Shown here one piece after another: positions 5,920-35,701 of a stretch of DNA of 64,000 nucleotides. This DNA comes from a virus (lineage: Duplodnaviria; Heunggongvirae; Uroviricota; Caudoviricetes). Every line of letters begins with the position of its first letter. Positions within the stretch are counted from its first letter, which is position 1. Where the stretch lies: the IMG/VR virus record IMGVR_UViG_3300025364_000002. One strand, 5' to 3'. A program made the position numbers and the translations under genes. The notes under the pieces are model-generated. The model was not told where the DNA came from. It ran no database searches and saw only the letters and a program-made list of their open reading frames with translations.

Positions 5920-6039
5920 CTCCAGAGGAGGGATTCGAACCCCCGACTAATCAGCTATCTTTGAAACCATCGGATTCGCATTGCAACAAGCTTTATCCGA
6001 TTCCCACAACCGATCGCTCTACCATTGAGCTACTCTAGA
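5920..6039 (-). ncRNA. tRNA-Asn-like scaffold with ~47-nt insertion in the anticodon loop
   Basis: Perfect acceptor TCTAGAG/CTCTGGA, G73, normal D and T arms, stem ATCGG/CTGAT enclosing a hairpin insert. Confidence 0.8.
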
Positions 6040-6052
6040 ACGACCAGAATCA

Positions 6053-6117
6053 GCAGACCTGTGGAGTCTCCAATGACCTGGCCTAGTCGCATTCCTCAGT
6101 CCACAATAAAGGTCTGC
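6053..6117 (-). ncRNA. putative structured RNA
   Basis: Stems GCAGACCT/AGGTCTGC and GTGGA/TCCAC in intergenic DNA. Confidence 0.4.
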
Positions 6118-6158
6118 GAGTAGATTTTTACTTTAGAAAGAACAGACGCAAATGTTTG

Positions 6159-7565
6159 CTATAAACATGGATTAACAATAATATCTTCAAGTCTTTCAAC
6201 CATAACCGCTGGGTCTGTAGAAATTAGATGAAAGGTAGCACAATCATCAAAATCTGTGTTGTTAACTGATGCCCCAAAGACTGTCAATGATTCTCCGTGC
6301 GTAAACGAATTACACATTTCCATTTCACGTACTTCTGACAAACCTCTTGTAGAACTTCTATATGTTTGCCCTCTTTCATCAGTAAACATTATCATAATGC
6401 GAATTGAACCTTCCCGCCAAGATAAACCTCTTCTGGTGGGTGAGAGCATATCAGCTATACCATCACCATTTGAATCAATACCGTGTTCAATTTCACCAGT
6501 TGCGCTTTCATAAACTGCATCCCAAGTTGGCTCCTGTGCACCACCATCAGCATCCAAACTAGATAGCCTACTATTAAAGCTAGTGAAATCAGAAAAATCA
6601 AGTTCTACAAATGCTCTTCTGTCTAATGCGCCTCGGCCAGAAATAAGAACCAATGCAAACCTAAATTCGGGATTTCCTGCATACAGTGCTGAAAAAGTTG
6701 TTGTTGCTTCACGAACAGCTGCAATTGTAGAAGACATTGAACCAGAAATATCGATCAAATAAAGAATGTCAAAACCATTTGGTTCTATTGTTATACACAC
6801 CCCATCTTCATAAGCACCATCAATGCATCCATCACAATCATCGTCGACCCTATTACAGGCAAGCAAACCAACTTCTGGCACCGGCGGAATTTCACCATCG
6901 CATTCAGACCAAGTTCCTCCGGTTTCACAAACTTGACGTCCTTTTCGACAAGGTGAGATAATCGAATCTATATTAGGCCCAGAATAGCACCATTGTGATA
7001 AAGGCCCTGTGGAATCACTATTTTCATCTACCTCACCATCACAATCATTGTCAATGTCATCACAATCTTCTGGAACGCAATTTAAAAAAGTACAAGAGCC
7101 TTCAATGCATGCAAATCCTCTTGGACACATATCATCAAATTCACAAATATCTACACAATAGCCATTGCCTGTAATGGAATCAGTGATACATTCTTGCTCA
7201 CCAGAACTTTCTTCATTGTTGCAGTCTTGAGTATTTTCGCATTCAGTAAAACGATCTGATCTGACGCAAGAACCCATACGGCAGTCTGCACCTTCACCAC
7301 ATGGTGGCCCGTTACCACATCTGCAAGAGCCATCTATGCATTGGTCAGAATCCATAATCGGACAAAAATTTCCACAACCCCCGCAATTTCTGAAATCAGT
7401 TCTTAGTCTAGCAAGATCATCACTTTCACACGGGGGTCCAGCATCCGTGTCTGTTATAGACATCAATCCAGAATCAGAGAGTGGCGGTATTAGTGGTATT
7501 CCTTCTTGGTTGGAACACGCAAACAAACCAATGCAAAACACACTTAAAACCGCTACTTTTTTCAT
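6159..7565 (-). CDS. Cys-rich lipoprotein with myxobacterial-type repeats and a C-terminal vWA domain
   Basis: Lipobox LFAC, TDFRNCGGCGNFC, CDDIDNDCDGEVDE repeats, LIDISGSMS MIDAS motif. Confidence 0.8.
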   Translation of the reverse strand: MKKVAVLSVFCIGLFACSNQEGIPLIPPLSDSGLMSITDTDAGPPCESDDLARLRTDFRNCGGCGNFCPIMDSDQCIDGSCRCGNGPPCGEGADCRMGSCVRSDRFTECENTQDCNNEESSGEQECITDSITGNGYCVDICEFDDMCPRGFACIEGSCTFLNCVPEDCDDIDNDCDGEVDENSDSTGPLSQWCYSGPNIDSIISPCRKGRQVCETGGTWSECDGEIPPVPEVGLLACNRVDDDCDGCIDGAYEDGVCITIEPNGFDILYLIDISGSMSSTIAAVREATTTFSALYAGNPEFRFALVLISGRGALDRRAFVELDFSDFTSFNSRLSSLDADGGAQEPTWDAVYESATGEIEHGIDSNGDGIADMLSPTRRGLSWREGSIRIMIMFTDERGQTYRSSTRGLSEVREMEMCNSFTHGESLTVFGASVNNTDFDDCATFHLISTDPAVMVERLEDIIVNPCL

Positions 7566-7636
7566 GTAAGCTCCTGTTTATTACACCTTACCAGATAATC
7601 AATTCTAATTCAACAGAAAAAATTATTAAATAATCC

Positions 7637-8434
7637 TTACTCAAGATCCTCTGAGTTTCTCAGAGTTTGATTACGTTGTGTTAACACCTCACAACCTTCA
7701 TCTGTAACAAGAATGGTATGCTCAAATTGAGCTGAAAGACTGCCATCTAAAGTTAAAACCGTCCATCCATCTGATGCAATGAAGCATCCATCATTGCCCA
7801 TGTTTACAATGGGTTCAATTGTGAAAATCATGCCCGGCTTAAGAACTTCTCCGAGGCCAGGTGTCCCAAAATGAAAAATAGACGGTTTACTGTGAAATTC
7901 TCGACCCACTCCGTGCCCAACAAATTCTTTTACAACTTTAAAACCTTTAGAAGTAACATGCGTTTCAATCGCATGACCAATATGCCCAACAGTAATTCCA
8001 GGTTTTACAATCTCGATAGCCTTCTTGAGGCTTTCACGGGTCGTTTCAACAAGTAGCCTTGCCTCTTGAGAAGGCGTGCCAACATAAAACATAGCACTGC
8101 TATCACCATGAAATCCTCCATTTTTTGGAAAAAAAACGGAGACATCTACATTAATAATGTCACCATTTTCTAGTTTTTCTTTAGTGCTTGGTATTCCATG
8201 ACAAGCAACTTCGTTACGACTGGTACATACGCTCTTAGGGAAGCCCTTATAATTCAAGGGAGATGGATAAGCGCCATTACTTGTAATAAACTCATGCACC
8301 AAAACATTTATATCTTCTGTAGTGATCCCTGGTTGGATGTGTTCGCCAACCAAAACGAGAGTTTCTGCTGTTAATCGGCAAGACTCTCTCATTAATACCA
8401 TTTCTTCTTTGTTTAAAGGTAGCACATTACCCAC
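7637..8434 (-). CDS. map: methionine aminopeptidase type I
   Basis: SVCTSRNEVACHGIP, DVSV, GDSS, GHGVGREFH, TIEP, SAQFEHTILVT motifs. Confidence 0.96.
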   Translation of the reverse strand: MGNVLPLNKEEMVLMRESCRLTAETLVLVGEHIQPGITTEDINVLVHEFITSNGAYPSPLNYKGFPKSVCTSRNEVACHGIPSTKEKLENGDIINVDVSVFFPKNGGFHGDSSAMFYVGTPSQEARLLVETTRESLKKAIEIVKPGITVGHIGHAIETHVTSKGFKVVKEFVGHGVGREFHSKPSIFHFGTPGLGEVLKPGMIFTIEPIVNMGNDGCFIASDGWTVLTLDGSLSAQFEHTILVTDEGCEVLTQRNQTLRNSEDLE

Positions 8435-8584
8435 CGTGTGTTATTAACAATTTTAGACCAACTTTTCAGTGTCAAGGAAACACCTATAAGGTTACTTTAC
8501 TTTTAAGGTGTTGGTCAATATCACTCAAGTATCAACACTAGAGCAAATTATGTAAAGCCACCTAGGTGGCTTCATTGTTGCTTC

Positions 8585-8665
8585 ACAAAGAACTCGGATT
8601 CGAACCGAGAATACCTTTACAGGCGGCGCAAGTTGCGAAGTGTATACCATTTCCACCATTCTTTG
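8585..8665 (-). ncRNA. tRNA-Leu-like RNA with collapsed anticodon loop
   Basis: Leu-type D arm, long variable arm, perfect acceptor and T arms, anticodon arm CGCA-ACT-TGCG. Confidence 0.7.
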
Positions 8666-8681
8666 GAGAGGCAAACAAAGT

Positions 8682-8903
8682 CTAGGTCCAGACCAACTTA
8701 CCTTTCTTTCCATTGTGAAAAAGAGTCAAGCCTCCTTGGTCTCTAAAGCACCCATAGGACTGTCCACGAGAAGTCATAACAGCTTCGAAATGGATAAGGT
8801 ACAATCCATCTAGTACAAAAACCTCCCGCCCTTCTAGGGCGGCATCAAGCAATTGTTCAGCGAGACTTATGTCATACATTGCTTTTGTCGTTACCATATT
8901 CAT
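8682..8903 (-). CDS. hypothetical protein
   Basis: 73-aa ORF. Confidence 0.5.
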   Translation of the reverse strand: MNMVTTKAMYDISLAEQLLDAALEGREVFVLDGLYLIHFEAVMTSRGQSYGCFRDQGGLTLFHNGKKGKLVWT

Positions 8904-9189
8904 TTTTTCGAGCTTTCATCATTGTTTCGGTTTTAATTTGGGCAATAACCGTATCCAACTCATCTGCAAGTTTGCGTAGCTTTTCTGGTGTTATTTCCAC
9001 TCCACCCAGGTGGAACTTGGCTGCGTTGTGGTATGAATTCAATTCCAACTGCTGGGTGGTATTTAATCCCCTAAAAACACCATCGCCATTATCCCAAAAG
9101 TCAGTAACCAACGAAAAAGCTTCGCCGCCATTGTCTTTTTCATTAAAGGTAAATACATGACGAGCAAGATGTTTTTTATCAGAACTCAT
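8872..9189 (-). CDS. hypothetical protein
   Basis: 105-aa ORF in operon. Confidence 0.65.
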   Translation of the reverse strand: MSSDKKHLARHVFTFNEKDNGGEAFSLVTDFWDNGDGVFRGLNTTQQLELNSYHNAAKFHLGGVEITPEKLRKLADELDTVIAQIKTETMMKARKNEYGNDKSNV

Positions 9190-9393
9190 TTATTCATCCT
9201 TATCCTTGTAAATTCGATTTTTTATTGCAAATTGCGGGGTTAGCCAAAATCTTGAGTCTGGCTTTGTTGCTATTTTACTTTCATTTGGATGGTAAGCTCG
9301 GCCATGCAATGGTTGAAAGCAGGGTTTTTCACAATACACACAAGTTGTATTTCCGAAACTTTTTCCAATAGCCTTAGAACATAACTTTGTCAC
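9190..9393 (-). CDS. hypothetical protein
   Basis: 67-aa ORF with CxxC. Confidence 0.5.
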   Translation of the reverse strand: MTKLCSKAIGKSFGNTTCVYCEKPCFQPLHGRAYHPNESKIATKPDSRFWLTPQFAIKNRIYKDKDE

Positions 9394-9707
9394 AAATTTT
9401 CCTTTGCATGGGTTTCAAAGTATTCAATTACATGCCCGGTAACAACATTTCCATTTTCAGGGTTGATAGCCAAAGAAACGAGGTCTTCCATGTATTGCTC
9501 CGGAATGTAAAATTGAAAAATCGTATATGATTTCTTATTTTCTAGTTGATATGACCGAATTTCTTCTAGAAGATCATTGATATTTTTTCTAGGAACAGCA
9601 AACCAAATTTTGGTTTGATCAAATTCAACTATCAATTGGTCAGATGGATCAATCGCATAAGGAAATTCAAAATCTTCACTAAATGTTGCAGACCAAAACT
9701 TTTGCAT
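9390..9707 (-). CDS. hypothetical protein
   Basis: 105-aa ORF with RBS GGGAGA. Confidence 0.65.
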   Translation of the reverse strand: MQKFWSATFSEDFEFPYAIDPSDQLIVEFDQTKIWFAVPRKNINDLLEEIRSYQLENKKSYTIFQFYIPEQYMEDLVSLAINPENGNVVTGHVIEYFETHAKENL

Positions 9708-9722
9708 AATATTTCTCCCGAG

Positions 9723-9794
9723 TGGGTTGCCTGGGATTCAAACCCAGAACCAACATTTTAAGAGACTGTTGCACTACCATTGTAGTGACCACCC
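9723..9794 (-). tRNA. tRNA-Lys(CTT), slightly degenerate
   Basis: Loop CTCTTAA; one mismatch each in acceptor and anticodon stems; T loop TTTGAAT. Confidence 0.7.
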
Positions 9795-9825
9795 AAAAAG
9801 CAACGGTCCTATTATAGGACCGTTG
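9795..9825 (-). terminator. intrinsic terminator-like hairpin
   Basis: CAACGGTCCT-ATAAT-AGGACCGTTG followed by CTTTTT. Confidence 0.55.
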
Positions 9826-10034
9826 GGTTAAAATAATAACTTTAAAAATAAACTAAGTGCGGATTCAATAATATAATAATAAACTTGGGATTTCTCGTCT
9901 TGCCGGCCATAACGCCCCGCACGGCGAATTTTCGGGTTAGCAACGATACTATCCTGCGTCTACAAAACAAAGTTTGCAGATATTTCTACGTTACCATATG
10001 TGTTCGGGTTTATAAACTCGGTTTGGTTTTGGTT

Positions 10035-10104
10035 TGACCCTGGGATTCGAACCCTCAGTCTCCCGATGTTATGTCGGGCGTTCTACCGTTGAACTAAACG
10101 GGTC
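10035..10104 (-). pseudogene. degenerate tRNA
   Basis: Intact D arm and CCCGA/TCGGG stem, loop CATAACA lacks U33, deletion in the 3' T stem/acceptor. Confidence 0.6.
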
Positions 10105-10121
10105 AAAACTTGAGCTAAGTT

Positions 10122-10196
10122 TGGAGCGGGTAGGGGGAATCGAACCCCTCGTCATCTGGTTGGAAGCCAGAAGCTCTACCATTGAGCTATACCCGC
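10122..10196 (-). tRNA. tRNA-Gly(TCC)
   Basis: Canonical cloverleaf, encoded CCA. Confidence 0.95.
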
Positions 10197-10197
10197 A

Positions 10198-10383
10198 TTA
10201 AATCAGTATCGTTAAATACTTTGCGTTGTCTTTGTCTATTTGACTTTTGTGAAAAAGTATTAGCTTTTCTTCATACAGAAAAGAATATGACTCAATAACT
10301 TTTTTAAGTGATTTTGACACTACTGTCTCATAGTAATGAATTCCAACATACACTAACAATGACTCATCTGGAATGGAAATCAT
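10198..10383 (-). CDS. hypothetical protein
   Basis: 61-aa ORF. Confidence 0.4.
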   Translation of the reverse strand: MISIPDESLLVYVGIHYYETVVSKSLKKVIESYSFLYEEKLILFHKSQIDKDNAKYLTILI

Positions 10384-10531
10384 CCCGAATCATAACCTTC
10401 ACTGCTGACTTCATCATTATTATTTCTGGGGATTTGAACGGAAGTATCACGAGCCAGAAATGGCGACAAACTGTCATTAGATTTTCTAGAGGTTTTTCGT
10501 TCTAGATGATATACCTTGCCGGGAATTAGTT

Positions 10532-10942
10532 TTACCACGTATTCCATCCGCAAGTTCCCATCTCTTTTTCAAAATCATCCCAGCGATTTTGTTTTAACAA
10601 GTCTCTTTCTTTTGCACGCCGACGGCGACGGTCAAACTTTTTCCAAGATTTACTTTCTTTTGAATACTGAGATTTACGAAATTTTTTTACGTAACGTTTT
10701 TCTACTGCAACCTTGGTATTACTAAACATTTCCATTTTCCACCGTTCAAAAATGGAAGGTTTGATAATAGTAAAACCCCAATAAGGATTGAAAACCACAG
10801 GACGTCGATAAACTATATCAATATGCGTGCGAGTATCAAAGTAATATTGTCTTCCTTCAGAATCGAATGCGGCCCAACCAATACCATCACGAACTTTTAA
10901 ACCTTTTGGAACAGCGTGACGATTTCTCCATGTTTTAGACAT
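10532..10942 (-). CDS. hypothetical basic protein
   Basis: 136-aa ORF with RBS GAGGAG, Arg/Lys-rich C-terminus. Confidence 0.7.
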   Translation of the reverse strand: MSKTWRNRHAVPKGLKVRDGIGWAAFDSEGRQYYFDTRTHIDIVYRRPVVFNPYWGFTIIKPSIFERWKMEMFSNTKVAVEKRYVKKFRKSQYSKESKSWKKFDRRRRRAKERDLLKQNRWDDFEKEMGTCGWNTW

Positions 10943-10958
10943 ATATTCTCCTCAAAAC

Positions 10959-11360
10959 CTAACGGTTATAAGAAGAGATAAAAATTGTGTTTGCTTCATT
11001 TTCTGTTTTATAGAAACAAATATTGCTAAGCTGAAACCTAGAAATGTAAACAATCTTTTCTTTATGGGAAAATCTTAAATAAATTCCATTGCCTGCTCTA
11101 TTCGTATATCCCGCAGCATCGCCGCAATACAATACAATGTCCTTGTTTGGGATGCTCACGATATTACTTTTGAGTTGATCAACTGCTTCTTGTAAAGAAC
11201 CTTTATGCACATTCCATAGAGGTGCAAATGAATCGCTATTCCAAGCTAAGACACAATCATTCAGTAAGGATTCTACCCTGTAAAGGGTACCCAATGTAAG
11301 TTTATTTTGATAACTTTTACTATTTACTGTAAACTTGTTCAACAATCTATCATGCTCCAA
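10959..11360 (-). CDS. hypothetical protein
   Basis: 133-aa ORF. Confidence 0.6.
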   Translation of the reverse strand: MEHDRLLNKFTVNSKSYQNKLTLGTLYRVESLLNDCVLAWNSDSFAPLWNVHKGSLQEAVDQLKSNIVSIPNKDIVLYCGDAAGYTNRAGNGIYLRFSHKEKIVYISRFQLSNICFYKTENEANTIFISSYNR

Positions 11361-11441
11361 ACCATCATTGTCTTATAAGATTAGAGTGGTAGCACCAAGG
11401 CATTAAATCAAGCCCTGAAAGCTCAATGAGCGAGTTAAAAC

Positions 11442-11747
11442 TCATTGACCTCGGTTTGAAACAAGTTTACCAAATATAGCATTTTTTGAAATCCAACCAT
11501 TAATGAACCCACGATTATTGGATATTTGAAACCTTTCGCCTTGGATTGCACTTATAAGATGCAGATACTGCTTTCCTTTAACTTTGCAAAGAACGATATC
11601 GCCCTTGTCGAATTCAGTTTTTTCTGAAATAGGTTCAACGACTACAAGGTCACCAGACTCAATCAACGGCTTCATCGAGCTGCCCCTAGGTCGGAATTCT
11701 ACTGTTTCACCGCTTTTGAGCTTCTTTATGTATTCTGTGGCCCACAT
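11442..11747 (-). CDS. S24/S26 peptidase-like protein
   Basis: RGSSMKPLIESGDLVVV and KGDIVL...YLH motifs. Confidence 0.75.
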   Translation of the reverse strand: MWATEYIKKLKSGETVEFRPRGSSMKPLIESGDLVVVEPISEKTEFDKGDIVLCKVKGKQYLHLISAIQGERFQISNNRGFINGWISKNAIFGKLVSNRGQ

Positions 11748-12064
11748 TGTTCTTCAACCTTATTAACAAACTCTTCCCATTCTTCATCGGTAAATTTATC
11801 ACCAATTGACTCAAGTGTTTTTCTAAGCCGTGCTTTGACTTCTTTCTCCCAAAGCTCTTCAAATGGTTCACGTTCGCCTAACAAAAAATCATCAACCTCA
11901 TAAAGTTTAACCTTGTATACAGATGAAGCATTGTCATAATATTCTTGTGCTTCTTCTAGAGAAGAAAAGGTACGCTGTCGATAACATTCTTCATAACTTG
12001 TTCCATCATCCCCATAATGGCTTAGCCATTTTTCTACTCGATAATATGTTCTATTTTTGCTCAT
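11726..12064 (-). CDS. hypothetical protein
   Basis: 112-aa ORF in operon. Confidence 0.65.
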   Translation of the reverse strand: MSKNRTYYRVEKWLSHYGDDGTSYEECYRQRTFSSLEEAQEYYDNASSVYKVKLYEVDDFLLGEREPFEELWEKEVKARLRKTLESIGDKFTDEEWEEFVNKVEEQCGPQNT

Positions 12065-12918: not shown

Positions 12919-12997
12919 TTATACCTCTGACAGAGGGTACTTCCAAGAAGTATTTTCTCAAAAGTTTTCCCGTTTTACATTTTGCGTGGTTTCGAAA

Positions 12998-20297: not shown

Positions 20298-20317
20298 TGT
20301 TTCCCTAATAATATTAG

Positions 20318-22539: not shown

Positions 22540-22793
22540 AAAATTATTCAAATGAATTTCACAGAAATTACTAAGCATCATTGCCGTATCCTTGTAAGTA
22601 TGGGACTACAAAGAAAGAATAGATAGTTCACACCCTGCATTAGCACAATAACGCTTGTAAGTTTAAGCAAATCGTGGTCCACTATTTCAATCAAAAACAC
22701 AGATTGTTCTTCAAATGATTTTACATTGAGCACGCATCTAAGATACAGTTACAACTCAAACGTTCTCTGCTTGAGCATCTTTTTCTTGCTTAG

Positions 22794-22930
22794 TCGAGAA
22801 GGTAGGGATCGAACCTACTATCATCCGTTGGATACGGAAGTCAAGAACATACATGTTCACACAATTATGAGTCATGTAGCACTTGTGGCATCCTTCACTG
22901 GGACCGCTTTTCCAGTAAGCTATCTTCTCG
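22794..22930 (-). ncRNA. 137-nt tRNA-scaffold RNA with several anticodon-like hairpins
   Basis: Acceptor CGAGAAG/CTTCTCG, D arm and T arm enclose hairpins with loops CAGTGAA, CTCATAA, TGTA and TATCCAA. Confidence 0.8.
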
Positions 22931-22931
22931 T

Positions 22932-23018
22932 TGGTGGAAGGTTGAGGTGTCGATCCCCACAGCCGAAGCTGCGCACTGTTTTCAAGACAGGCCCCGGAGC
23001 CGTCCGGGTTAACCTTCC
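22932..23018 (-). tRNA. tRNA-Ser(TGA)
   Basis: Loop CTTGAAA, long variable arm, atypical T loop ATCGACA, CCA. Confidence 0.85.
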
Positions 23019-23426
23019 AAAATTATCATTGACATGTATCATATCAGTCGTTTATATTCTTACAAACTCTATTACTCGCCTTCTGTAGGTTTGCTTACTT
23101 CAAGATTTACTTCTGCTAAAACTTGTTCAAGGCCCACTTGGTCAGTCTCTTCTTCACCTTTTTTAGTAAGGTTATCACACATAGTTTTGTGATGACATTT
23201 CAAACCCTTGTTGGCTGATACATGAATGATAAGTTGTTTTTGTTGTCAACAAAAACAACCAAGTAGTTACGCAGACCGTGTCTAGAATTATTTACCCATC
23301 CATCTTTCTGTTAGCACCCTCAACCAGCATGCCAAAACTTTCTCGTTCGTTGTTGAATGCTCACAAATCAACGACGTTGCTAAAAGCCCCAAACTAATAA
23401 ATTAAAAGACGAACAGCTTTCTGCTT

Positions 23427-28522: not shown

Positions 28523-28682
28523 ATAACTTTTAATCAAATTTATGGGTGATCCAGATCGAATTTAAACCGTTGACGTGAAATTTTTCAAAATACATCCACC
28601 TGTCAGCAATGACTCCAAGGCGCTAGCCTGGTTTCTCGAAGACCTGCATGCTGGTACAGGCAGCCTTCCTTGGAATCATAAC

Positions 28683-28964: not shown

Positions 28965-28987
28965 CTAAGTAAATATCTTTGTTGATG

Positions 28988-29494: not shown

Positions 29495-29711
29495 GACGAT
29501 GATGAGAAATTACACGTTCCACGTGAACCTTTTCCCCAAATTTCTCTTTAATATTGAAGATTGCATCTTCTGCTGCTTCGACATGAAGCACATTTTTTCC
29601 TACGCCAGTTAGTTCAACGTTTGAAGCAGGGGTCAAAAAATCAACGATTTCTGTGATCACCACCGTATTTCTAAATTCTGGTTTTATTGCAATAGTGTAC
29701 GTATTATTCAT
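29472..29711 (-). CDS. hypothetical protein
   Basis: Start at MNNTY after tRNA-Arg. Confidence 0.6.
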   Translation of the reverse strand: MNNTYTIAIKPEFRNTVVITEIVDFLTPASNVELTGVGKNVLHVEAAEDAIFNIKEKFGEKVHVERVISHHRLDEQLSQ

Positions 29712-29726
29712 TGTGAATTTCCTTAG

Positions 29727-29798
29727 CATCCCCGGAGAGACTCGAACTCCCAACCACCTGGTTCGAAGCCAGGTGCTCTTCCTTTGAGCTACGGGGAC
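29727..29798 (-). tRNA. tRNA-Arg(TCG)
   Basis: Canonical, G-CTA end. Confidence 0.93.
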
Positions 29799-29803
29799 AA
29801 ATG

Positions 29804-29884
29804 AGCACCGAACAGGATTCGAACCTGCAAACTTTGACCTAATTTCTCAAATCTCTGGACTTTACCAATTAAGCCTATACGGTG
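29804..29884 (-). pseudogene. tRNA-like RNA (Gln-type body) with altered, extended anticodon arm
   Basis: D and T arms recognisable; anticodon region TTTGA-GAAATTAGG-TCAAA. Confidence 0.55.
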
Positions 29885-29890
29885 ATTCAG

Positions 29891-29962
29891 CAGGCCGGGT
29901 AGGGGTCGAACCTACATCTTCTCGTTTTGGAGACGAGCATTTTTCCATTAAACTACCGACCT
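29891..29962 (-). tRNA. tRNA-Trp(CCA)
   Basis: Loop CTCCAAA, A1-U72, G73. Confidence 0.92.
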
Positions 29963-29973
29963 ATTTTTTGCTT

Positions 29974-30381
29974 TCAGAGTAATTTTTCTTTAATGCAGTT
30001 AAGTAAATCTTTTCCTTGTTGCTCAACTTCTTTCGAAAGAACTTTAGAATTTTCTGGTCGATGTCTGTGATCGAACCTTTTTGTTAGTTCCCAATAATAG
30101 TCCCTATCTTTCGGAGCATGTTGCTTTTGATATTGTTGTATTGTTTGATACTGTTGCATTATCTTCACGAGATCTACAGTAGCCTCATTCGTTATTGACT
30201 TCGGAACTAAATTGATAATTGCGTCTTGTACAAATTTGGCAGCAGATGAAGCACTATCGGCAGCAGCGGGTATTTCTAAAGTTGTTGGTATCACTTCCTC
30301 ATTCCCATTTTCGTCAACTTCAATAACTGCCGTCAAGATACGAATCTTGTATGTCTTGCCGTTTTTACTCTTTTTCTTCAT
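29974..30381 (-). CDS. hypothetical protein
   Basis: 135-aa ORF. Confidence 0.65.
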   Translation of the reverse strand: MKKKSKNGKTYKIRILTAVIEVDENGNEEVIPTTLEIPAAADSASSAAKFVQDAIINLVPKSITNEATVDLVKIMQQYQTIQQYQKQHAPKDRDYYWELTKRFDHRHRPENSKVLSKEVEQQGKDLLNCIKEKLL

Positions 30382-30814
30382 ACGTTTTTTCCATCATCAC
30401 TTTAATAGGCTGTTCCTCAGATATAACTTCATCCTTGGTGTGTCTAACAGTACCATCAGAAAGAATTATATACACAACACCTGGCTTTTTCCACATGTAC
30501 TTGATTGTTTCCCAGGTGCCAGAACCTTTTTGTAAAAGTTTGTCAGTTGGAGGCAATCCAATCAAAACATCAGAAACTTCTACCAAATACCGATTTCTAG
30601 CCATATGCCCTAAGTTGTATGGGGTTACGCCCGTAGAAGCTCCCAGGTCCGCCGCTAAAGCTCTAAACATTTTGTCGGCACCTTCGCCATCATTGTGAAT
30701 ACATAACAGCTTGTGGTTTTTTAGAAAATGAACAAGAAGCTCTTTGAGTTTTTCGATTTGAGCTTCTGTAAAACCTTCTCGTCTGCCAGTAAAACCTACC
30801 ACTAATCCTTCCAT
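30365..30814 (-). CDS. SLOG superfamily (DprA/YspA-like) protein
   Basis: VGFTGRREG, EGAD, MARNRYLV, GSGTWETIKY. Confidence 0.72.
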   Translation of the reverse strand: MEGLVVGFTGRREGFTEAQIEKLKELLVHFLKNHKLLCIHNDGEGADKMFRALAADLGASTGVTPYNLGHMARNRYLVEVSDVLIGLPPTDKLLQKGSGTWETIKYMWKKPGVVYIILSDGTVRHTKDEVISEEQPIKVMMEKTYEEKE

Positions 30815-30844
30815 TGGAACACCTTGCAACAAATAGTAATTTAG

Positions 30845-30969
30845 CGGTATCCACAGGAATCGAACCTGTCTTGTGAGTTGCCTCGTCAGGCACCGGTAGC
30901 GGTCCCACAATGTCTCCCAGCACGGCCGTAGCCATGAAAGCGCAATGTTAGCGCTTATTGACGAATACC
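30845..30969 (-). ncRNA. 125-nt tRNA-ended RNA with a multi-hairpin core
   Basis: Acceptor GGTATTC/GGATACC-G-CTA and canonical T arm; core has four hairpins and no D arm or anticodon. Confidence 0.8.
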
Positions 30970-30974
30970 ATATT

Positions 30975-31068
30975 TGGTAGGGCTAGAGGGGCTCGAACCC
31001 CCATCTCAGGTTTATCAGACCTTAAGCCGGTTATAAACCGGTTGCATTCACCATTATGCTATAGCCCC
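30975..31068 (-). tRNA. tRNA-Ile(TAT) with a second Ile(GAT)-like stem-loop as variable arm
   Basis: ACCGG-TTTATAA-CCGGC followed by AGGT-CTGATAA-ACCT; CCA encoded. Confidence 0.85.
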
Positions 31069-31072
31069 AAAT

Positions 31073-31220
31073 TTTGTCTGTAAAGGTACCGTTACCTTCA
31101 ATACCTACCCGCAATGGTAGGCCCCACGGGAACTTCCATCGCACGTATTATTCAAACCCAGCGTTTAGGCTGGTTGAATGAATAAACCCTTGAGTTCAGT
31201 CATTTTCGGTTACAGACAAA
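31073..31220 (-). ncRNA. structured ncRNA with 11-bp closing stem
   Basis: TTTGTCTGTAA/TTACAGACAAA enclosing at least four hairpins. Confidence 0.65.
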
Positions 31221-31242
31221 GCTCGTAATCCATCGAGCTTAG

Positions 31243-31316
31243 TGGAGTCATCGGGATTCGAGCCCGATTCTTCGGTTTGCAAGACCGAGATTTTACCCAA
31301 CATAAACTATGACCCC
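31243..31316 (-). tRNA. tRNA-Ala(TGC)
   Basis: G3-U70, loop CTTGCAA. Confidence 0.9.
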
Positions 31317-31322
31317 ATTTTA

Positions 31323-31411
31323 CGACACAACGACCGGGATTCGAACCCGGACTAGGAGCCTACTAAACGCAAATGCTGGGCCCCTGTGCTCCCATTACAC
31401 TATCGTGTGTC
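31323..31411 (-). ncRNA. tRNA-like RNA (Gln-type body) with 18-nt anticodon loop
   Basis: Canonical D and T arms, GGGGCC/GGCTCC stem enclosing CAGCATTTGCGTTTAGTA. Confidence 0.72.
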
Positions 31412-31530
31412 GGCTTTCGCCGACTTACTTCAACAAGGATACTCACTTCACTACTCTGAAGGCGCCCGACTTCGTGTTCCGCTGCATTACTAACTTGCAA
31501 GCCTGTCCAGGCCCTTCCCCTGGCTCATGG
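31412..31530 (-). ncRNA. putative structured RNA
   Basis: CCAGG/CCTGG hairpin and GTCGGC-GAAA-GCCGAC tetraloop in a GC-rich spacer. Confidence 0.4.
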
Positions 31531-31645
31531 TTTTTTAAGCCTTTGCGTTTGTTACTAACAAACTTTCATGCAGTATTGTGTCCGTTGGCGTTCCAACATT
31601 TCGATCCGTTTTCACCTGATTATTTCAGAAGGTTACTCGCAAAAT

Positions 31646-31963
31646 TTATCTTATTCTACATCTGACATTGGACCAACCATTCACAAATGGATTCCATAGG
31701 TCATTTGTATAGACGAAAACATATGCAACTCTTCCTGGGTATACAACGCCCCCAGCGTCTGACCAGAGACGATGCCCAGAACGAAGTTGGCCAATAACTC
31801 TGCCACGACAAACAATCGGGCGATCAAGACCATTGTAAATGGCACCTACGACTCTTCCAGAAGTTACTTCAACTCGAACATTTGCTTGCCACCAAGCATA
31901 AGCAGTAGTAGTGACAAAAAATAATAATAGTGCAGCAATTGCTGCTAATACAGCTTTTTTCAT
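31646..31963 (-). CDS. secreted hypothetical protein
   Basis: Signal peptide ending AYA. Confidence 0.7.
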   Translation of the reverse strand: MKKAVLAAIAALLLFFVTTTAYAWWQANVRVEVTSGRVVGAIYNGLDRPIVCRGRVIGQLRSGHRLWSDAGGVVYPGRVAYVFVYTNDLWNPFVNGWSNVRCRIR

Positions 31964-31984
31964 TATAGCCTCAATTTAGTTTAG

Positions 31985-32059
31985 TGCCCATGGAGGGAAT
32001 CGAACCCACATTCACCTAATTTTGAGTTAGGCTGCTTTGCCAGATTAGCATACACGGGC
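31985..32059 (-). tRNA. tRNA-Leu(CAA), short variable arm
   Basis: Loop CTCAAAA, A73. Confidence 0.88.
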
Positions 32060-32111
32060 ATCAATTTACAACATAATTTTTTGTCTTAAAGAAGAGTGTT
32101 GTTTATGTTAG

Positions 32112-32192
32112 CGGAGAGCAGCGGAATCGAACCGCCGTCGGTAGCTATCCGACGCCATCCCCAGGAGCGTTTCACTTCTCCCAAGACTCTCC
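32112..32192 (-). ncRNA. tRNA-Ser-like scaffold with rearranged D/anticodon region
   Basis: Ser acceptor GGAGAGT/GCTCTCC-G-CTA, T arm and GTCGG/CCGAC arm intact. Confidence 0.62.
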
Positions 32193-32195
32193 TAA

Positions 32196-32366
32196 TGGCC
32201 CATAAGGAATCGAACCTCACTCTCCTGGAAATAAGCTCCAGGCGACCGTCTCAGCAGTCTGCAGCGCATGTATGTCTTTCCGTACTGTCATCCTGTTTCT
32301 TCAGGCAATAACTTCTCATTCGGGGAAGTCCCTATTTCTACACGTTGACGTCATTATGCAGAACGG
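32196..32366 (-). ncRNA. structured RNA with 3' D-armless tRNA-like domain
   Basis: 5' domain closed by ACCGT/ACGGT, then CCTGGA/TCCAGG arm and GTGAGG-TTCGATT-CCTTAT T arm. Confidence 0.55.
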
Positions 32367-32370
32367 TTAG

Positions 32371-32453
32371 TACCGGCGACAGGATTTGAACCTGCACTCA
32401 CTTTCGTGAACTGGCTTCTAAGACCAGCATGTCTTCCATTCCATCACACCGGC
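32371..32453 (-). tRNA. tRNA-Leu(TAG)
   Basis: Canonical class II. Confidence 0.93.
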
Positions 32454-32458
32454 AAATA

Positions 32459-32594
32459 AAACGTCGGCGTTCACCATCGGACTCGTTGACTATCAGCTAG
32501 GCGAACTCACCTCTTGGCTTACACGTCACATATAAGGAGTTACCATTAATTTCCATCCCCATAATGGTGGAAATTGATTCAGGCTCCGACGTTT
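32459..32594 (-). ncRNA. structured ncRNA with 9-bp closing stem
   Basis: AAACGTCGG/CCGACGTTT and internal AATTTCCA/TGGAAATT. Confidence 0.6.
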
Positions 32595-32596
32595 AG

Positions 32597-32669
32597 TACA
32601 CGGTACAGGAATTGAACCTGTCTAAGCCATCTTGTAAGGATGGTGCCTCCCCAGCCGGACCCACCGTGC
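32597..32669 (-). tRNA. tRNA-Val(TAC)
   Basis: Loop CTTACAA. Confidence 0.88.
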
Positions 32670-32903
32670 TCATTTCTTACGCTCTGCTCTAAGAGCTTTA
32701 GTTTTTTTCAATGAAAGGTACATAAAATACAAGTTTAAAAAAACAACAATTAAAAGGGCTGTTCCGCTAAAAATTTGCCCTTGAGCTAATATCGTTACAC
32801 CAACCAGCAAACAAAATATAATGGACATACTATACCAGTAACACTTGCGACGTTCGTTTTCGATTTCAAGCTCAAGAACTCTGCTTTCTAAATCTAGACT
32901 CAT
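32670..32903 (-). CDS. small membrane protein
   Basis: Two hydrophobic segments. Confidence 0.65.
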   Translation of the reverse strand: MSLDLESRVLELEIENERRKCYWYSMSIIFCLLVGVTILAQGQIFSGTALLIVVFLNLYFMYLSLKKTKALRAERKK

Positions 32904-33099
32904 GCATTTCCTCTTTTAGGATTGATTCAATTGCCGTTAAACAATTTGGGCACCCAACAAGCCTACCAACCATTCTATTGTTGTTATACCAGTGATCTAT
33001 GCTAGTGAAATGAAACTCCTTTCGGATATCCTTGTCACAAAGTGATTTTCTTTTGTGTTCTTCATGATTTCTAGTAATATGACATTGCCATTCTTTCAT
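32872..33099 (-). CDS. hypothetical protein with Cys pairs
   Basis: 75-aa ORF with RBS AGGAAA. Confidence 0.6.
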   Translation of the reverse strand: MKEWQCHITRNHEEHKRKSLCDKDIRKEFHFTSIDHWYNNNRMVGRLVGCPNCLTAIESILKEEMHESRFRKQSS

Positions 33100-33112
33100 A
33101 TTTTTTCCTTAG

Positions 33113-33187
33113 AGCGGATAGAGGGATTCGAACCCTTCACCACCTGGTTGGAAGCCAGGCATGCTAGCCGTTAAACACCATACCCGC
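33113..33187 (-). tRNA. tRNA-Gly(TCC)
   Basis: Canonical. Confidence 0.93.
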
Positions 33188-33191
33188 ATCT

Positions 33192-33302
33192 TGAAAGTAA
33201 CCAACTTTCCATCACCTGGTGAGGGTGAGCCCGTTGAGCTTTTCGCATTACAGTGCTCGTACGAGAAACTTCATCTGTCATCAGGTTACCTAGGTAACCT
33301 GA
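33192..33302 (-). ncRNA. putative multi-hairpin RNA
   Basis: Long palindromic hairpin TCAGGTTACC/GGTAACCTGA plus three more hairpins. Confidence 0.45.
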
Positions 33303-33307
33303 TGGCG

Positions 33308-33385
33308 TGGGGTGTCCGACGAGACTTGAACTCGCACTCTCTCGGGTCACAACCGAGCGCTCTAACCAATTAAGCTACGGACACC
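33308..33385 (-). tRNA. tRNA-His(GTG)
   Basis: G-1:C73, CCA. Confidence 0.95.
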
Positions 33386-33391
33386 ATAATT

Positions 33392-33470
33392 TGGTCAGGG
33401 TAGCTGGATTCGAACCAGCGGCCTCCTGCGTCCGAGGCAGGCACTCTAAACCAGACTGAGCTATACCCTG
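33392..33470 (-). tRNA. tRNA-Pro(CGG)
   Basis: Canonical, CCA. Confidence 0.95.
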
Positions 33471-33479
33471 TTATGTTAG

Positions 33480-33553
33480 TCAGAGTGATAGGATTCGAAC
33501 CTACAGCCTCCCGGATCCAAACCGGGTACTCTTCCAGATTGAGCTACACTCTG
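33480..33553 (-). tRNA. tRNA-Pro(TGG)
   Basis: Canonical. Confidence 0.94.
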
Positions 33554-33562
33554 ATGATTATT

Positions 33563-33640
33563 TGGTCGGGATGGAGGGATTCGAACCCACGACCTCTGGT
33601 ACCCAAAACCAGCGCTCTACACAAGCTGAGCCACACCCCG
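33563..33640 (-). tRNA. tRNA-Pro(TGG)
   Basis: Canonical, CCA. Confidence 0.93.
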
Positions 33641-33641
33641 T

Positions 33642-33875
33642 TTATTCACAAAGCTCTGGCAGCTTTGCTCTAAGAAAGTTGTTGTACTTGTTGATTCTCT
33701 TTGCTAAGTTGTCGCTATATTCGAGCAAGGAAGTTAACTCCGCTCTAATCGTATCTTCATATAGATTATGAAACTTTCTTAAATCTTCGACGACTTCAGA
33801 TTGTTTCATCATCTGATTTACTTTTTCTTCAAGCGAGCCTTGAAGTTTCAGAGTTTTGTCTTTCTTGACAATCAT
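33642..33875 (-). CDS. hypothetical coiled-coil protein
   Basis: Start at MIVKK, downstream of tRNA-Asn. Confidence 0.6.
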   Translation of the reverse strand: MIVKKDKTLKLQGSLEEKVNQMMKQSEVVEDLRKFHNLYEDTIRAELTSLLEYSDNLAKRINKYNNFLRAKLPELCE

Positions 33876-33898
33876 ATCATACCGTTCACAGGATTTAG

Positions 33899-33982
33899 CT
33901 CCTGGGGTAGGAATCGAACCCACATACACCTTTCGGATCACCGGTTAACAGCCGGCCGCTTAAACCATTCAGCCACCCAGGA
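33899..33982 (-). tRNA. tRNA-Asn(GTT) with long variable arm
   Basis: U1-A72, G73, loop CTGTTAA, variable hairpin with GAAA loop. Confidence 0.88.
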
Positions 33983-34289
33983 AAAAAGAGCCTAAGGCTC
34001 AAATCGTTTTTTGAGAGAGAACTGTTACAATGTCTTTCGGAAAAGAACCTTGGCAGTGTCAAACGCAATATTTCGAGGTCTGGAAGAGAAACCCTATCTC
34101 CCAATCAACTAGTCACAATTCGTCTTATCCAATATGAAAGTCTCTTCGTTACGACTTGCGAGTTTTATTCGTTCGTATCTTCACGTCTTACGGGGTCTAG
34201 CCTGCGTTTTCGGGGTTTAGGCTCCTCAAAATTGAGGATATGAACTAGTCATCTGTACTTCCATCGGCCTACTTTTGTACAGCGAGTTT

Positions 34290-34365
34290 TGGAGCTACCT
34301 TCGAGAATCGAACTCGAATCTCACCCTTACCAAGGGCGTGTAATTGACCGTTATACTAAGGTAGC
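34290..34365 (-). tRNA. tRNA-Thr(GGT)
   Basis: Canonical, CCA. Confidence 0.93.
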
Positions 34366-34373
34366 AAACTTAG

Positions 34374-34445
34374 CAGGGAGAGAAGGACTTCCACCTTCAA
34401 CTTCCGGCTCAATACGCCGGGCTTTTGTCGTTAAGCTATCTCCCT
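34374..34445 (-). tRNA. atypical tRNA, anticodon ATT
   Basis: All four stems pair perfectly; loop GTATTGA, T loop TGGAAGT, D loop lacks GG. Confidence 0.55.
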
Positions 34446-34631
34446 ATAGTGGGCTTCAACTCTTATCTTTCGACAGCAAATGTTTTCTGTGCCATTCTAC
34501 GCAGCCACGGTAATAAGATAAACTTTGAAACCCAATGAAGTCCCTAACTTTACACGTGTCGTCAACTGCCAAATGACTTCAATTTACAGCGTTCTTTGGC
34601 ACGTATAAAGCACAAGATTTCTCTTGTTGAG

Positions 34632-34702
34632 AGCGGCTAGTGGGAGTCGAACCCACGCTCACAGCTTGGCAAGCTGTTGTACTACCGTAATACTTTAGCC
34701 GC
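34632..34702 (-). tRNA. tRNA-Gly(GCC)
   Basis: Canonical. Confidence 0.93.
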
Positions 34703-34727
34703 AAATCCCCAATATGGGGCGACACGT

Positions 34728-34931
34728 TCATTTACATATGTCAAACTTTTCTCTTTCTGTCCAAGGTCGGAAAGTAACCCAATATATCGGTTTACCTTTC
34801 TTATCGTATCCCACAGGTTCTTTAACCCAAACCGCAAACACATCATATTGTTTTAGATCGGCTGTGCAGTGACCAATTCTACCCTTTTCAAGGTAGAAAT
34901 CACTGTCAGGGTTACCGATATCCTCGGTCAA
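34728..34931 (-). CDS. hypothetical protein
   Basis: 67-aa ORF. Confidence 0.55.
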   Translation of the reverse strand: MTEDIGNPDSDFYLEKGRIGHCTADLKQYDVFAVWVKEPVGYDKKGKPIYWVTFRPWTEREKFDICK

Positions 34932-35012
34932 TTTTACCTAATGATTGAGGTATCCTTCATCTTCTATTTTCATATTTGCCTCCATTTGCAAAGTGCGCTC
35001 TTGGAGCCTTAG

Positions 35013-35086
35013 CAAGCTGTCTAGGACTCGAACCTAGAACATTTCCTTCGTAGGGAAGTATGATAATCCAATTTCACCAACAGCCC
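35013..35086 (-). tRNA. tRNA-Arg(ACG)
   Basis: Loop CTACGAA. Confidence 0.9.
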
Positions 35087-35089
35087 ATT

Positions 35090-35557
35090 TTAATTATATC
35101 CGCCTTTACAATGTGTAGGTAATGTCGCATTACAATTTGGACATAAAAATCTTAGATTTTCTAATCTGTTATCATTTCTTATTCCATTTATATGGTCAAG
35201 AATCAATGATATCTTTTTTCCATTCCAATTATCATCCAATGGACACATAGAACAAGTGTAAGATATTAGTTTGTCTTTGACAATCCTATTTCTAAGAACA
35301 GATCTTGCAACTGTAGAATTTACTACAAATATATCTTTGTATCCTCTTTTGCTTAGAGATTTTGTCTGATACAAATAATTTGCCATTTCTTTTCTACCTA
35401 AAAAATGACTAGTGTCTATATTCCATTCTTTTATTTTCTTTTTTAGAGTTTTGTACGCAGAACTAGAAGCATTGCGCTCAAATTTATCTAAAACCATCTT
35501 GTAGCTCAATGAAACTTTCACCGCTTCTTTTAGCGTTTTTTCTGTATATTGTTTCAT
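35090..35557 (-). mobile_element. HNH homing endonuclease
   Basis: CSMC...LILDHINGIRNDNRLENLRFLCPNCN; start at MKQYTE. Confidence 0.9.
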
Positions 35558-35587
35558 AGAAATGCTCTTCCTTTGAGCTATGGGAGC
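35558..35587 (-). pseudogene. 5' half of an Arg-type tRNA abutting the HNH start codon
   Basis: GCTCCCA-TA-GCTC-AAAGGAA-GAGC-A-TTTCT followed directly by ATG. Confidence 0.75.
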
Positions 35588-35614
35588 AAAGATAACTATC
35601 CTCAGCAAATCTAG

Positions 35615-35701
35615 TTTGCCGATGGGACTCGAACCCATACTGGACCGGGTTCGAGCTTTCGCCCTACTACCAGCGCCTCTGCCAAATTGGGCTACGGAGG
35701 A
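35615..35701 (-). ncRNA. tRNA-Leu-like scaffold with a GNRA hairpin replacing the anticodon
   Basis: D arm GCCC-AATTTGGCAGA-GGC, CTGG/CCAG stem enclosing GGGC-GAAA-GCTC, T arm intact, weak acceptor. Confidence 0.6.

Follow-up and report, generated by a model that had tools for sequence, protein, structure and literature searches.

The 64,000-nucleotide (nt) window analyzed here, taken from Caudoviricetes virus record IMGVR_UViG_3300025364_000002 of IMG/VR, carries a large array of tRNA genes and, within it, eight tRNA-shaped loci (at positions 5920, 8585, 22794, 29804, 30845, 31323, 32112, and 35615) in which the anticodon region is altered. The source of the window is a huge phage, because one window protein is located on a 461-kilobase (kb) contig. 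We favor, with a probability of about 55%, the reading that a rapidly changing tRNA array gave rise to these eight loci, which are of two sorts, conserved non-decoding RNAs and disabled or lineage-specific tRNA derivatives. About half of the loci are conserved tRNA-ended RNAs, and the remainder are recent or eroding derivatives of tRNAs. The shapes, orthology, conservation, covariation, and recombination joints described below are observed directly in the DNA of the window and its relatives. Phage tRNA genes are usually seen as decoders or as replacements for tRNAs cut by the host; these results point to another use, in which the arrays of huge phages carry conserved RNAs that have lost decoding and kept the tRNA handle.

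Shape and Detection of the Eight Loci

ARAGORN called 52 tRNA genes in the window, 51 of them on the minus strand, and the Rfam tRNA threshold was passed at 47 loci; all eight candidates likewise lie on the minus strand. We defined a strict T arm as a stem of 5 base pairs (bp) closed by a TTCGANN loop. The window contains 59 such arms, 16 of them outside the tRNAs called by ARAGORN, where first-order Markov simulations predict 0.9, and 49 T arms with an acceptor partner paired at 7/7 positions, where the simulations predict 0.1. An earlier note on this DNA had described at least eight tRNA-shaped RNAs with a T arm; a strict T arm is indeed found at all eight positions, and what the note saw is confirmed and reaches past these eight loci. 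The acceptor pairs 7/7 at 5920, 8585, 22794, 30845, 31323, and 32112 (5/7 at 29804 and 4/7 at 35615, from the ARAGORN drawings). The D arm is canonical at 5920, 22794, 29804, and 31323 and is reduced or replaced at 8585, 30845, 32112, and 35615.

A canonical 5-bp anticodon stem with a 7-nt loop carrying an anticodon is present at none of the eight loci, in agreement with the note's description of the region as deleted, expanded, or swapped. The loop is 3 nt long at 8585 and 19 nt at 31323, the arm is interrupted by 48 nt at 5920, hairpins stand in its place at 22794, 30845, and 35615, and it is degenerate at 29804 and 32112. That damage is concentrated in this region, as the note had put it, can be seen directly at 5920 and 8585 by comparison with intact orthologues, but not at 30845 and 35615, where the D arm has been replaced as well, or at 29804 and 35615, where the acceptors are eroded.

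The five loci said to end in a discriminator followed by CTA (5920, 22794, 30845, 32112, and 35615) do so, and they share this tail with functional tRNAs of the array: among 45 Rfam-scored tRNAs, the discriminator is followed by CTA, usually CTAA, in 22 (for example, CTA at 1263-1265, 20315-20317, and 31240-31242) and by CCA in 16. Because 22/45 ordinary tRNAs also carry it, we regard the CTA tail as a real signature of the array.

Standard tRNA finders miss or miscall about a dozen such genes per genome, which matters for annotation. Two candidates, 5920 at 50.5 bits and 31323 at 32.4 bits, reach the gathering threshold of Rfam RF00005 (29 bits), since an insert in the loop is tolerated by the model; the other six score below it. 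In default mode, ARAGORN calls just one candidate, 8585, as an implausible Ser-ACT. At least six further loci are of like kind, at 32193-32290, 36353-36425, 36434-36562, 36652-36725, and 9723-9794 and, as a T arm with CCA, at 40214-40241. The elements start 1-6 nt past the 3′ end of the preceding tRNA.

Related Loci Used for Comparison

Logan and ENA contigs carry homologues of a 773-amino acid (aa) window protein, with identities of 86%, about 70%, and 57%, and walking along these contigs recovered the syntenic arrays of two further lineages. Lineage 2 comprises loci L009, L014, and L022 (a 507-kb contig) with the close variants L012, L015, and L023, and lineage 3 comprises L017 and L019 (a 164-kb contig). 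Compared with the L014 lineage, the window shows 66-76% identity in coding DNA and 75-100% in tRNAs, and most spacers cannot be aligned. The anchor protein has no relative in IMG/VR, and the IMG/VR loci anchored on methionine aminopeptidase (MetAP) were too distant for comparison.

A Family of tRNA-Ended RNAs with Covarying Hairpins

The strongest candidate for a conserved tRNA-ended RNA under structural constraint is the family of candidate 30845 (30842-30969, tail G-CTA), whose 120-140-nt members occupy the same array position in the window, L014 (5759-5877), L015 (1757-1875), and L019 (1314-1454), that is, in three lineages. The four sequences have little primary sequence in common and share a fold, which runs from a 7-bp acceptor through a 5-6-bp hairpin at the D-arm position, a second hairpin, and a conserved GGGGA stretch to a helix enclosing a GACG-loop hairpin, the T arm, the 3′ strand of the acceptor, and a G-CTA or G-CCA tail. 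Neither a D arm nor an anticodon is present in any member.

The RNAalifold consensus computed from an unsupervised MAFFT alignment contains 35 pairs, 15 of which show compensatory double changes, and 94.3% of its cells are paired; none of 500 shuffles reached the observed pairing, number of double changes, or covariation score. When the 3′ partners were slid by 1-3 columns as a control, just 1-3 double changes were left, and a helix table segmented by hand placed double changes at 20 of 35 positions. ARAGORN calls a tRNA-Met with an intron on 30845, and the "CAT loop" of this call is part of a covarying stem in the relatives. A covariance model of the family (R1) finds exactly one copy per genome and only these four sequences. 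A gapped-pattern scan returned 127 matches without a convincing member, of which 18 were ordinary tRNAs (13 of them tRNA-Gln) and the rest had no ARAGORN tRNA and mostly no acceptor partner.

A conserved 135-aa gene follows the element directly in the window (after 28 nt) and in L019. We also considered whether a mini TyrRS/TrpRS-type gene, which stands beside the element in L014 and L019, is constantly linked to the family, and rejected this idea, the gene being absent at the window site.

A Candidate 330-nt RNA Ending in a tRNA-Like Module

In candidate 31323 (31323-31408), a tRNA-like module, the D and T arms are canonical and the anticodon loop is 19 nt long. The module is 93% identical to its counterparts in L014 and L015 and 86% identical to that in L019, and the 19-nt loop is invariant. 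It forms the 3′ end of a non-coding block of ∼330 nt (31317-31650; L014 4523-4852; L019 205-565) that has a mean column identity of 87% across the three lineages, the remainder being a conserved upstream domain contiguous with the module (31409-31646, minus strand), seen in alignments and folds. This block lies within a 677-nt stretch that is 90% identical to L014, in genomes whose coding DNA is 66-76% identical and whose spacers are unalignable. Taken together with the upstream domain, 31323 is a strong candidate for a conserved tRNA-ended RNA under structural constraint.

The enlarged loop of the module is complementary to an invariant upstream segment (AAACGCAAA versus TTTGCGTTT, plus GCT versus AGC), and the two invariant segments lie ∼170 nt apart. 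An upstream heptamer provides an alternative 5′ partner for the 3′ strand of the 31323 acceptor, and a single A-U to G-C double change is compatible with both acceptor pairings. The 330-nt RNA matched no Rfam family, even with relaxed filters, and exact-pattern scans with its core found nothing in viral, metagenome, or genome contigs.

The predicted fold is reminiscent of transfer-messenger RNA (tmRNA), in that the acceptor helix and T arm close a long helix leading toward an interior domain of ∼160 nt. It differs from tmRNA in having no G3-U70 pair, no encoded CCA, and no convincing tag frame, and its local module has a D arm of its own. An identity as tmRNA was rejected, as neither ARAGORN nor the Rfam tmRNA models detect it and both G3-U70 and a tag are absent.

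Two Further Conserved Elements

Candidate 35615 (35612-35701, tail A-CTA) has a class II-type D arm, a T arm, and, in place of the anticodon region, a GNRA-capped hairpin within a CTGG/CCAG stem. Its homologue, L014 8402-8476, is placed elsewhere in the L014 array as the third of three tandem non-canonical elements. Between the two copies, the T stem carries two compensatory double changes, and a G-U in the hairpin is replaced by G-C; the window acceptor is eroded (4/7), and that of the L014 copy is good and extended. The core of the family gave nothing in exact-pattern scans of viral, metagenome, or genome contigs. An element missing from the initial eight, at 32193-32364 on the minus strand (T arm 32203-32219, with ∼100 nt of conserved DNA upstream), is 91% identical to L014 4271-4441 over 173 nt; we refer to it as the 32203 element. 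By these comparisons, 35615 and the 32203 element are both moderate candidates for conserved tRNA-ended RNAs under structural constraint.

The tandem trio of L014 (8156-8490) recurs in L012 and L015, with a repeated AAGTTCCAAG spacer motif between its tRNA-like elements and a 6-nt anticodon loop in the middle one, and lies 166 nt upstream of a 255-aa AlaRS-core-like gene.

Probably Disabled and Lineage-Specific tRNA Derivatives

The second sort of locus would comprise 5920, 8585, 29804, 22794, and 32112, recent or lineage-specific tRNA derivatives whose anticodon arm may have been struck by duplication or insertion, small deletion, or recombination; in the simplest view they would be disabled tRNAs, some of them eroding. 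Candidate 5920 (5917-6039, tail G-CTA) is a tRNA-Asn(GUU) derivative with canonical D and T arms, scored by the Rfam tRNA model and found by ARAGORN in intron mode; its anticodon arm contains an insert of 48 nt in which both strands of the anticodon stem recur. Its positional orthologue is an uninterrupted 76-nt tRNA-Asn(GTT) at L022 17784-17859, between the same VWA-domain gene and downstream genes; the body is the same, GTT is changed to GTG, and positions 37 and 38 are G in the window copy. Exact-pattern scans for 5920 found ordinary tRNA-Asn genes only.

Candidate 8585 (8582-8665) derives from tRNA-Leu(UAG); its long variable arm and its T arm are kept, and its end bears neither CCA nor CTA. 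Aligned with the canonical tRNA-Leu(TAG) at L022 13136-13220, it shows a 4-nt deletion that removes the anticodon and leaves the 3-nt loop. The changes that separate it from this orthologue in the acceptor, variable arm, and T stem are compensatory, so that 8585 has not simply drifted. A tRNA-Pro(GGG) upstream of MetAP in L017 was considered as an orthologue and rejected.

These two loci bear on the possibility that the candidates are intron-bearing tRNA genes, restored to decoding tRNAs by self-splicing or by a phage endonuclease and ligase. ARAGORN in intron mode does put the 48-nt insert of 5920 and the 37-nt insert of 30845 at the canonical position 37/38, yet the inserts are just 13-67 nt long and gave no group I match at E = 10 with relaxed filters, and no bulge-helix-bulge motif was seen by eye. 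In the 30845 family, where the D arm is missing in all lineages, no member becomes a canonical tRNA once the insert is removed. The 5920 orthologue is an intronless tRNA-Asn, and the window copy has GTG with G37 and G38 on an Asn body without the G-1 of a tRNA-His, and 8585 has a deletion rather than an insert. We consider either type of intron scarcely credible as an explanation and rejected both group I introns and, on inspection by eye, bulge-helix-bulge introns.

Candidate 22794 (22791-22930; tail A-CTA) is a 137-nt element with a multi-hairpin core of ∼67 nt and a fold z-score of -2.8. It begins 1 nt past the CCA of a tRNA-Ser(UGA)-like gene. In L009 and L012 it is missing from the syntenic site, and Ser(GGA) there comes directly after the Ser(UGA)-like gene. 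This tRNA-Ser(UGA)-like gene (22931-23020, minus strand), directly upstream of 22794, has an unusual T loop (ATCGACA) and an encoded CCA, is not called by ARAGORN, and is kept in L009.

Candidate 29804 (29801-29885), with its 5/7 acceptor and degenerate anticodon and variable regions, is 73% identical to L014 8163-8230, the first element of the trio, and the central region folds differently in the two genomes. Over 115 nt at this locus, a near relative has 8 differences (7%), as against 1.4-3.6% in neighboring pieces, and 29804 is probably eroding.

Candidate 32112 (32109-32192, tail G-CTA) is a class II element of the Ser type with a long variable arm, a degenerate D arm, and the loop CTGGGGA; tRNA-Ser(GGA) has exactly the same acceptor and tail. 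The candidate is absent in L014 between the 32203 element and Leu(CAA), and neither it nor 22794 has a homologue in any of the loci we fetched. Seryl-tRNA synthetase recognizes features of the acceptor and the long variable arm without reading the anticodon, and 32112 keeps both a Ser-type acceptor and such an arm. This would suit the stronger reading of the note, in which the elements are charged or protein-binding tRNA mimics, for example decoys for tRNA-targeting defense nucleases of the host or substrates of anticodon-blind mini-synthetases of the phage. In the relatives, short tRNA-synt_1b and tRNA-synt_2c genes (186-262 aa) adjoin non-canonical elements, but they are absent at these sites in the window; no identity element was found in the candidates, and G3-U70 occurs in none. 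Phage tRNAs are known to counter anticodon nucleases (PMC10264068, PMC11464382, PMC11555353), but elements without an anticodon loop would be unable to act as decoys for nucleases that recognize that loop. We judge mimicry to be a very doubtful account of the set.

The locus at 9723-9794 (minus strand) provides an internal contrast to the eight candidates. It is a tRNA-Lys(CUU) pseudogene with an Rfam score of 30 bits, and relative to the Lys(CTT) gene of L022 it has an acceptor mismatch, C56T in the T loop, an anticodon-stem mismatch, and CTC in place of CCA, a pattern that reads as ordinary decay in all arms.

Remodeling of the Array

Near-relative contigs from a microbial-mat run lack 83 nt of the window (32123-32205), and the joint falls in 11 nt common to the T loops of 32203 and 32112. 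Judged by this joint, the loss is a T-loop recombination event of a kind that makes or destroys chimeric tRNA-like genes. The same contigs also skip 383 nt (29919-30301).

Mobile genes have struck the array as well. The T arm, acceptor, and CCA at 40214-40241 belong to a tRNA split in its anticodon arm by an HNH open reading frame (ORF) (40214-40887, minus strand), its own 5′ half starting from 40887, 650 nt upstream and beyond the HNH gene. At 35090-35587 (minus strand), an orphan tRNA-Arg 5′ half (35558-35587), whose sequence exactly matches the beginning of Arg(ACG) in L014, runs directly into an HNH gene (ATG at 35557), and a different, complete tRNA-Arg(ACG) follows the cassette at 35012-35086. 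Together, T-loop recombination, HNH insertion in anticodon arms, and small insertions and deletions such as those of 5920 and 8585 explain the clustering of lesions in the anticodon arm. We suggest that this remodeling supplies raw material, some products of which later come under structural constraint.

Such observations would also fit a view in which all eight loci are non-functional debris, that is, pseudogenes and scars of mobile elements in which the T arm and acceptor would survive only as the best conserved and most easily recognized parts, perhaps refreshed by gene conversion among about 60 paralogues. Clear pseudogenes are present at 9723 and 36663; 5920 and 8585 are damaged versions of tRNAs found intact in the sister genome; evolution is fast at 29804, and a near relative has lost part of 32112; two tRNAs are split at the anticodon arm by HNH genes, and T-loop recombination is seen directly. 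The choice of loci by their T arm, moreover, biases the sample. What this view does not accommodate is the compensatory double changes in the non-tRNA hairpins of the 30845 family, which go beyond anything that gene conversion between tRNAs could supply, and the 86-93% identity of 31323 with its upstream domain, of 32203, and of 35615 between genomes whose spacers are otherwise unalignable. We consider it unlikely for the set as a whole.

The relatives likewise sort out the remaining claims of the earlier note. The single recurring class that it proposed does not survive the comparison, which splits the loci into conserved RNAs and disabled, lineage-specific, or eroding copies. Its idea that the phage uses tRNA bodies as carriers for other RNA domains fits a subset, for orthologous loci in related phages show that some are structurally constrained: the 30845 family keeps an acceptor, a T arm, and three non-tRNA hairpins through compensatory changes, and 31323 and 35615 are conserved well above neighboring coding DNA. 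The idea does not extend to 5920 and 8585, with their lineage-specific lesions, to 22794 and 32112, which are absent at syntenic sites, or to the fast-evolving 29804. The concentration of damage in the anticodon region does not extend to 9723, which is damaged in all arms. Fragments consisting of a 5′ half alone exist at 35558-35587 and about 40850-40887, and their existence means that the argument of a damage unlike random decay partly reflects ascertainment bias from choosing loci by their T arm. An nhmmer test for 5′-half-only remnants found none, but it detects just 32 of 50 known tRNAs and missed the two real halves made by HNH genes, and it is too insensitive to give evidence for an asymmetry between 5′ and 3′ halves.

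Several results weigh against the two-sort reading. The 30845 fold is drawn from four sequences in just three lineages, and the R1 covariance model found no member in the 634-kb phage record LR745206 or in four IMG/VR huge-phage contigs. Covariation in the 330-nt RNA is weak, with 5 double changes that were matched by 4 of 500 shuffles, because the sequence hardly varies. The window copy of 35615 is 88% identical to L014 8402-8476, whose sequence is identical in L012 and L015, so that the family is known from two distinct sequences, and the window copy may be dying though the family is conserved. On the other side of the division, 8585 could still be in use, and "disabled tRNA" is possibly too weak a label for it. 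Among the sequencing runs that contain the window DNA, finally, none is recorded as RNA.

Proposed Maturation and Use

RNase P, 3′ trimming, and the CCA-adding enzyme recognize the minihelix of acceptor and T arm, not the anticodon arm. For the conserved non-decoding RNAs (30845, 31323 plus the upstream domain of ∼240 nt, 35615, and the 32203 element outside the initial eight), we propose that the acceptor stacked on the T arm, together with the discriminator and CTA or CCA, is kept as the part read by these maturation enzymes, and that a different, structurally constrained core takes the place of the D and anticodon arms. We infer transcription, processing, CCA addition, and core function as follows. 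The RNAs would be cotranscribed with the neighboring tRNAs, their 5′ ends would be excised by RNase P, their 3′ ends would be trimmed to the discriminator or C74 and completed by a CCA-adding enzyme, for which a phage-encoded one is present, and they would accumulate as stable RNAs with the core as the working part.

The encoded C74 and U75 suggest that maturation in this array depends on a CCA-adding or CCA-repair enzyme. T4 tRNA genes, by contrast, do not follow a rule of CTA after the discriminator, which holds for 22/45 tRNA genes here. A gene for a CCA-adding enzyme, with a PolyA_pol head domain and an RNA-binding domain by Pfam, is present in two pieces at 52143-54892 (minus strand): one ORF covers positions 1-77 of the PolyA_pol head profile, the other covers 74-126 plus the RNA-binding domain, and a GIY-YIG/NUMOD3 endonuclease ORF lies between them and overlaps both. 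Such an enzyme suits an array where CTA, not CCA, is encoded by half of the genes.

Taken further, the tRNA array might work as a small-RNA factory, with the 30845 family and the 330-nt RNA as effectors whose cores bind a host or phage partner and whose handle provides maturation, CCA, and perhaps charging; we put this forward tentatively. Partners could, for example and just as speculatively, be a tRNA-targeting defense nuclease, a tRNA-modifying enzyme, or a phage synthetase core without an anticodon reader.

The same minihelix might instead serve as processing punctuation, merely directing cuts in a long array transcript and so freeing mRNAs or spacer RNAs. The acceptor with T arm is the sole part retained across the set, and several positions are suitable: 35615 stands before an HNH cassette, 30845 lies 28 nt before the 135-aa gene, and 5920 and 8585 lie between genes. 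Plant mitochondrial t-elements are an established precedent and, like MALAT1 mascRNA, are tRNA-shaped modules kept for RNase P and RNase Z and not for decoding (PMC1920247). These eukaryotic modules, however, sit at the ends of mRNAs or long non-coding RNAs, whereas the window elements lie within a tRNA array that supplies cuts of its own, and some have constrained cores. Punctuation leaves the constrained 30845 cores and the 240-nt domain fused to 31323 unexplained, and the ordinary tRNAs that flank nearly all of the loci would already provide the cuts. It is, in our estimation, a rather improbable explanation.

Comparison with Known Systems

To our knowledge, the role of the species 1 RNA of phage T4 (rnaC) has been unknown for fifty years. 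This RNA and rnaD lie inside the phage tRNA cluster on the tRNA strand, and the eight loci are likewise co-oriented with their array. The T4 RNA is 139 nt long, with a canonical T arm (CCGGG-TTCGAAT-CCCGG), hairpins instead of the D and anticodon arms, and a fold z-score of -4.6; by manual reading, the 3′ strand after the T arm can pair at 5/7 positions with its own 5′ end, where the computed fold has a shorter closing stem. An architecture of this type, with a T arm and a terminal stem around a hairpin core in 120-140 nt, is found in 22794, 30845, and 5920. Short-word blastn gave only a 13-17-nt match in the T arm, which does not amount to homology. By this analogy, the candidate conserved RNAs share the design of rnaC and are not its homologues.

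T4 has one or two such RNAs, whereas the window phage has a dozen, in several unrelated families; the window elements mostly have perfect 7-bp acceptors followed by CTA or CCA, and one is joined to a conserved domain of 240 nt. T4 already provides an example of this kind of object; what is new is the families, their number per genome, and the 330-nt fusion. The function of rnaC is still described as unknown (PMC9697503), and the 30845 family and the 330-nt RNA are concrete, testable objects for this old question.

Y RNAs of the YrlA type, bacterial tRNA mimics that bind Ro60/Rsr, are likewise non-coding RNAs with a tRNA-like module and also occur in phages, and YrlA of M. smegmatis is cleaved by RNase P and gains CCA (PMC4201824). 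Their genes, however, adjoin the gene for Ro60 (TROVE), and the termini of most lie in the Ro-binding stem. Pfam detected no TROVE domain among the 43 window ORFs examined, a subset of the ORFs, and the Rfam YrlA model reached at best 26.7 bits against a threshold of 69, on ordinary tRNA-Pro genes and on no candidate. Beside 5920 lies a 468-aa VWA protein with no match in PDB or NCBIfam, whose neighbors in the ESM Atlas are viral MopE/VWA proteins. We considered a Y RNA/Ro60 pair for 5920 and rejected it, the adjoining protein being of the MopE/VWA and not the TROVE type.

In engineered tRNA scaffolds, the acceptor and T arm are kept and a foreign RNA is placed in the anticodon arm, which confers stability and correct end processing. 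These scaffolds are a laboratory design that retains the D arm, whereas the natural 30845 family replaces the D arm too.

The Phage and Other Elements of the Array

DNA of the window is present in metagenome runs from hypersaline lakes. Megablast of the array against 50,697 phage records gave zero matches, and the nearest record in that collection is LR745206, with 55% identity in the synthetase. Promoter and terminator scans of the window were at or near chance level. By Pfam, genes around the array encode, among others, several homing endonucleases, a large terminase of the T4 type, a protein resembling release factors, asparagine synthase, MetAP, and an AsnRS-type synthetase.

Three further elements lie close together in the window. 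The first (36353-36425, minus strand), a tRNA-like gene of 70 nt, combines a canonical CAU anticodon loop and an encoded CCA with a reduced D arm. ARAGORN does not call it, its identity to L019 8502-8572 of the third lineage is 76%, and it probably encodes a working tRNA of unusual form. The second (36434-36562, minus strand) is a tRNA-ended element of 126 nt with a 7/7 acceptor, a T arm, and a hairpin core, and has no homologue in the relative loci fetched. The third (36652-36725) is a degenerate tRNA-like locus with CCA.

The relatives also share a conserved, non-canonical tRNA-Arg, at 14837-14915 in L014 (loop TCT) and at about 5093-5170 in L019 (loop TCG). It has covarying 7-bp acceptors and a G-CTA tail and is not called by ARAGORN; the D arm is absent from its usual place, and a D-loop-like hairpin follows the anticodon arm instead.

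Two protein genes of the window deserve mention. A DUF5131 gene (1402-3309, minus strand) encodes 635 aa with a LAGLIDADG-like segment, its counterpart at L022 19672-20547 encodes 291 aa, and the longer window gene looks like an intein or endonuclease insertion. The release-factor-like protein encoded beside the tRNA array (49149-49829, minus strand) is short, at 226 aa, and contains PCRF and RF-1 domains.

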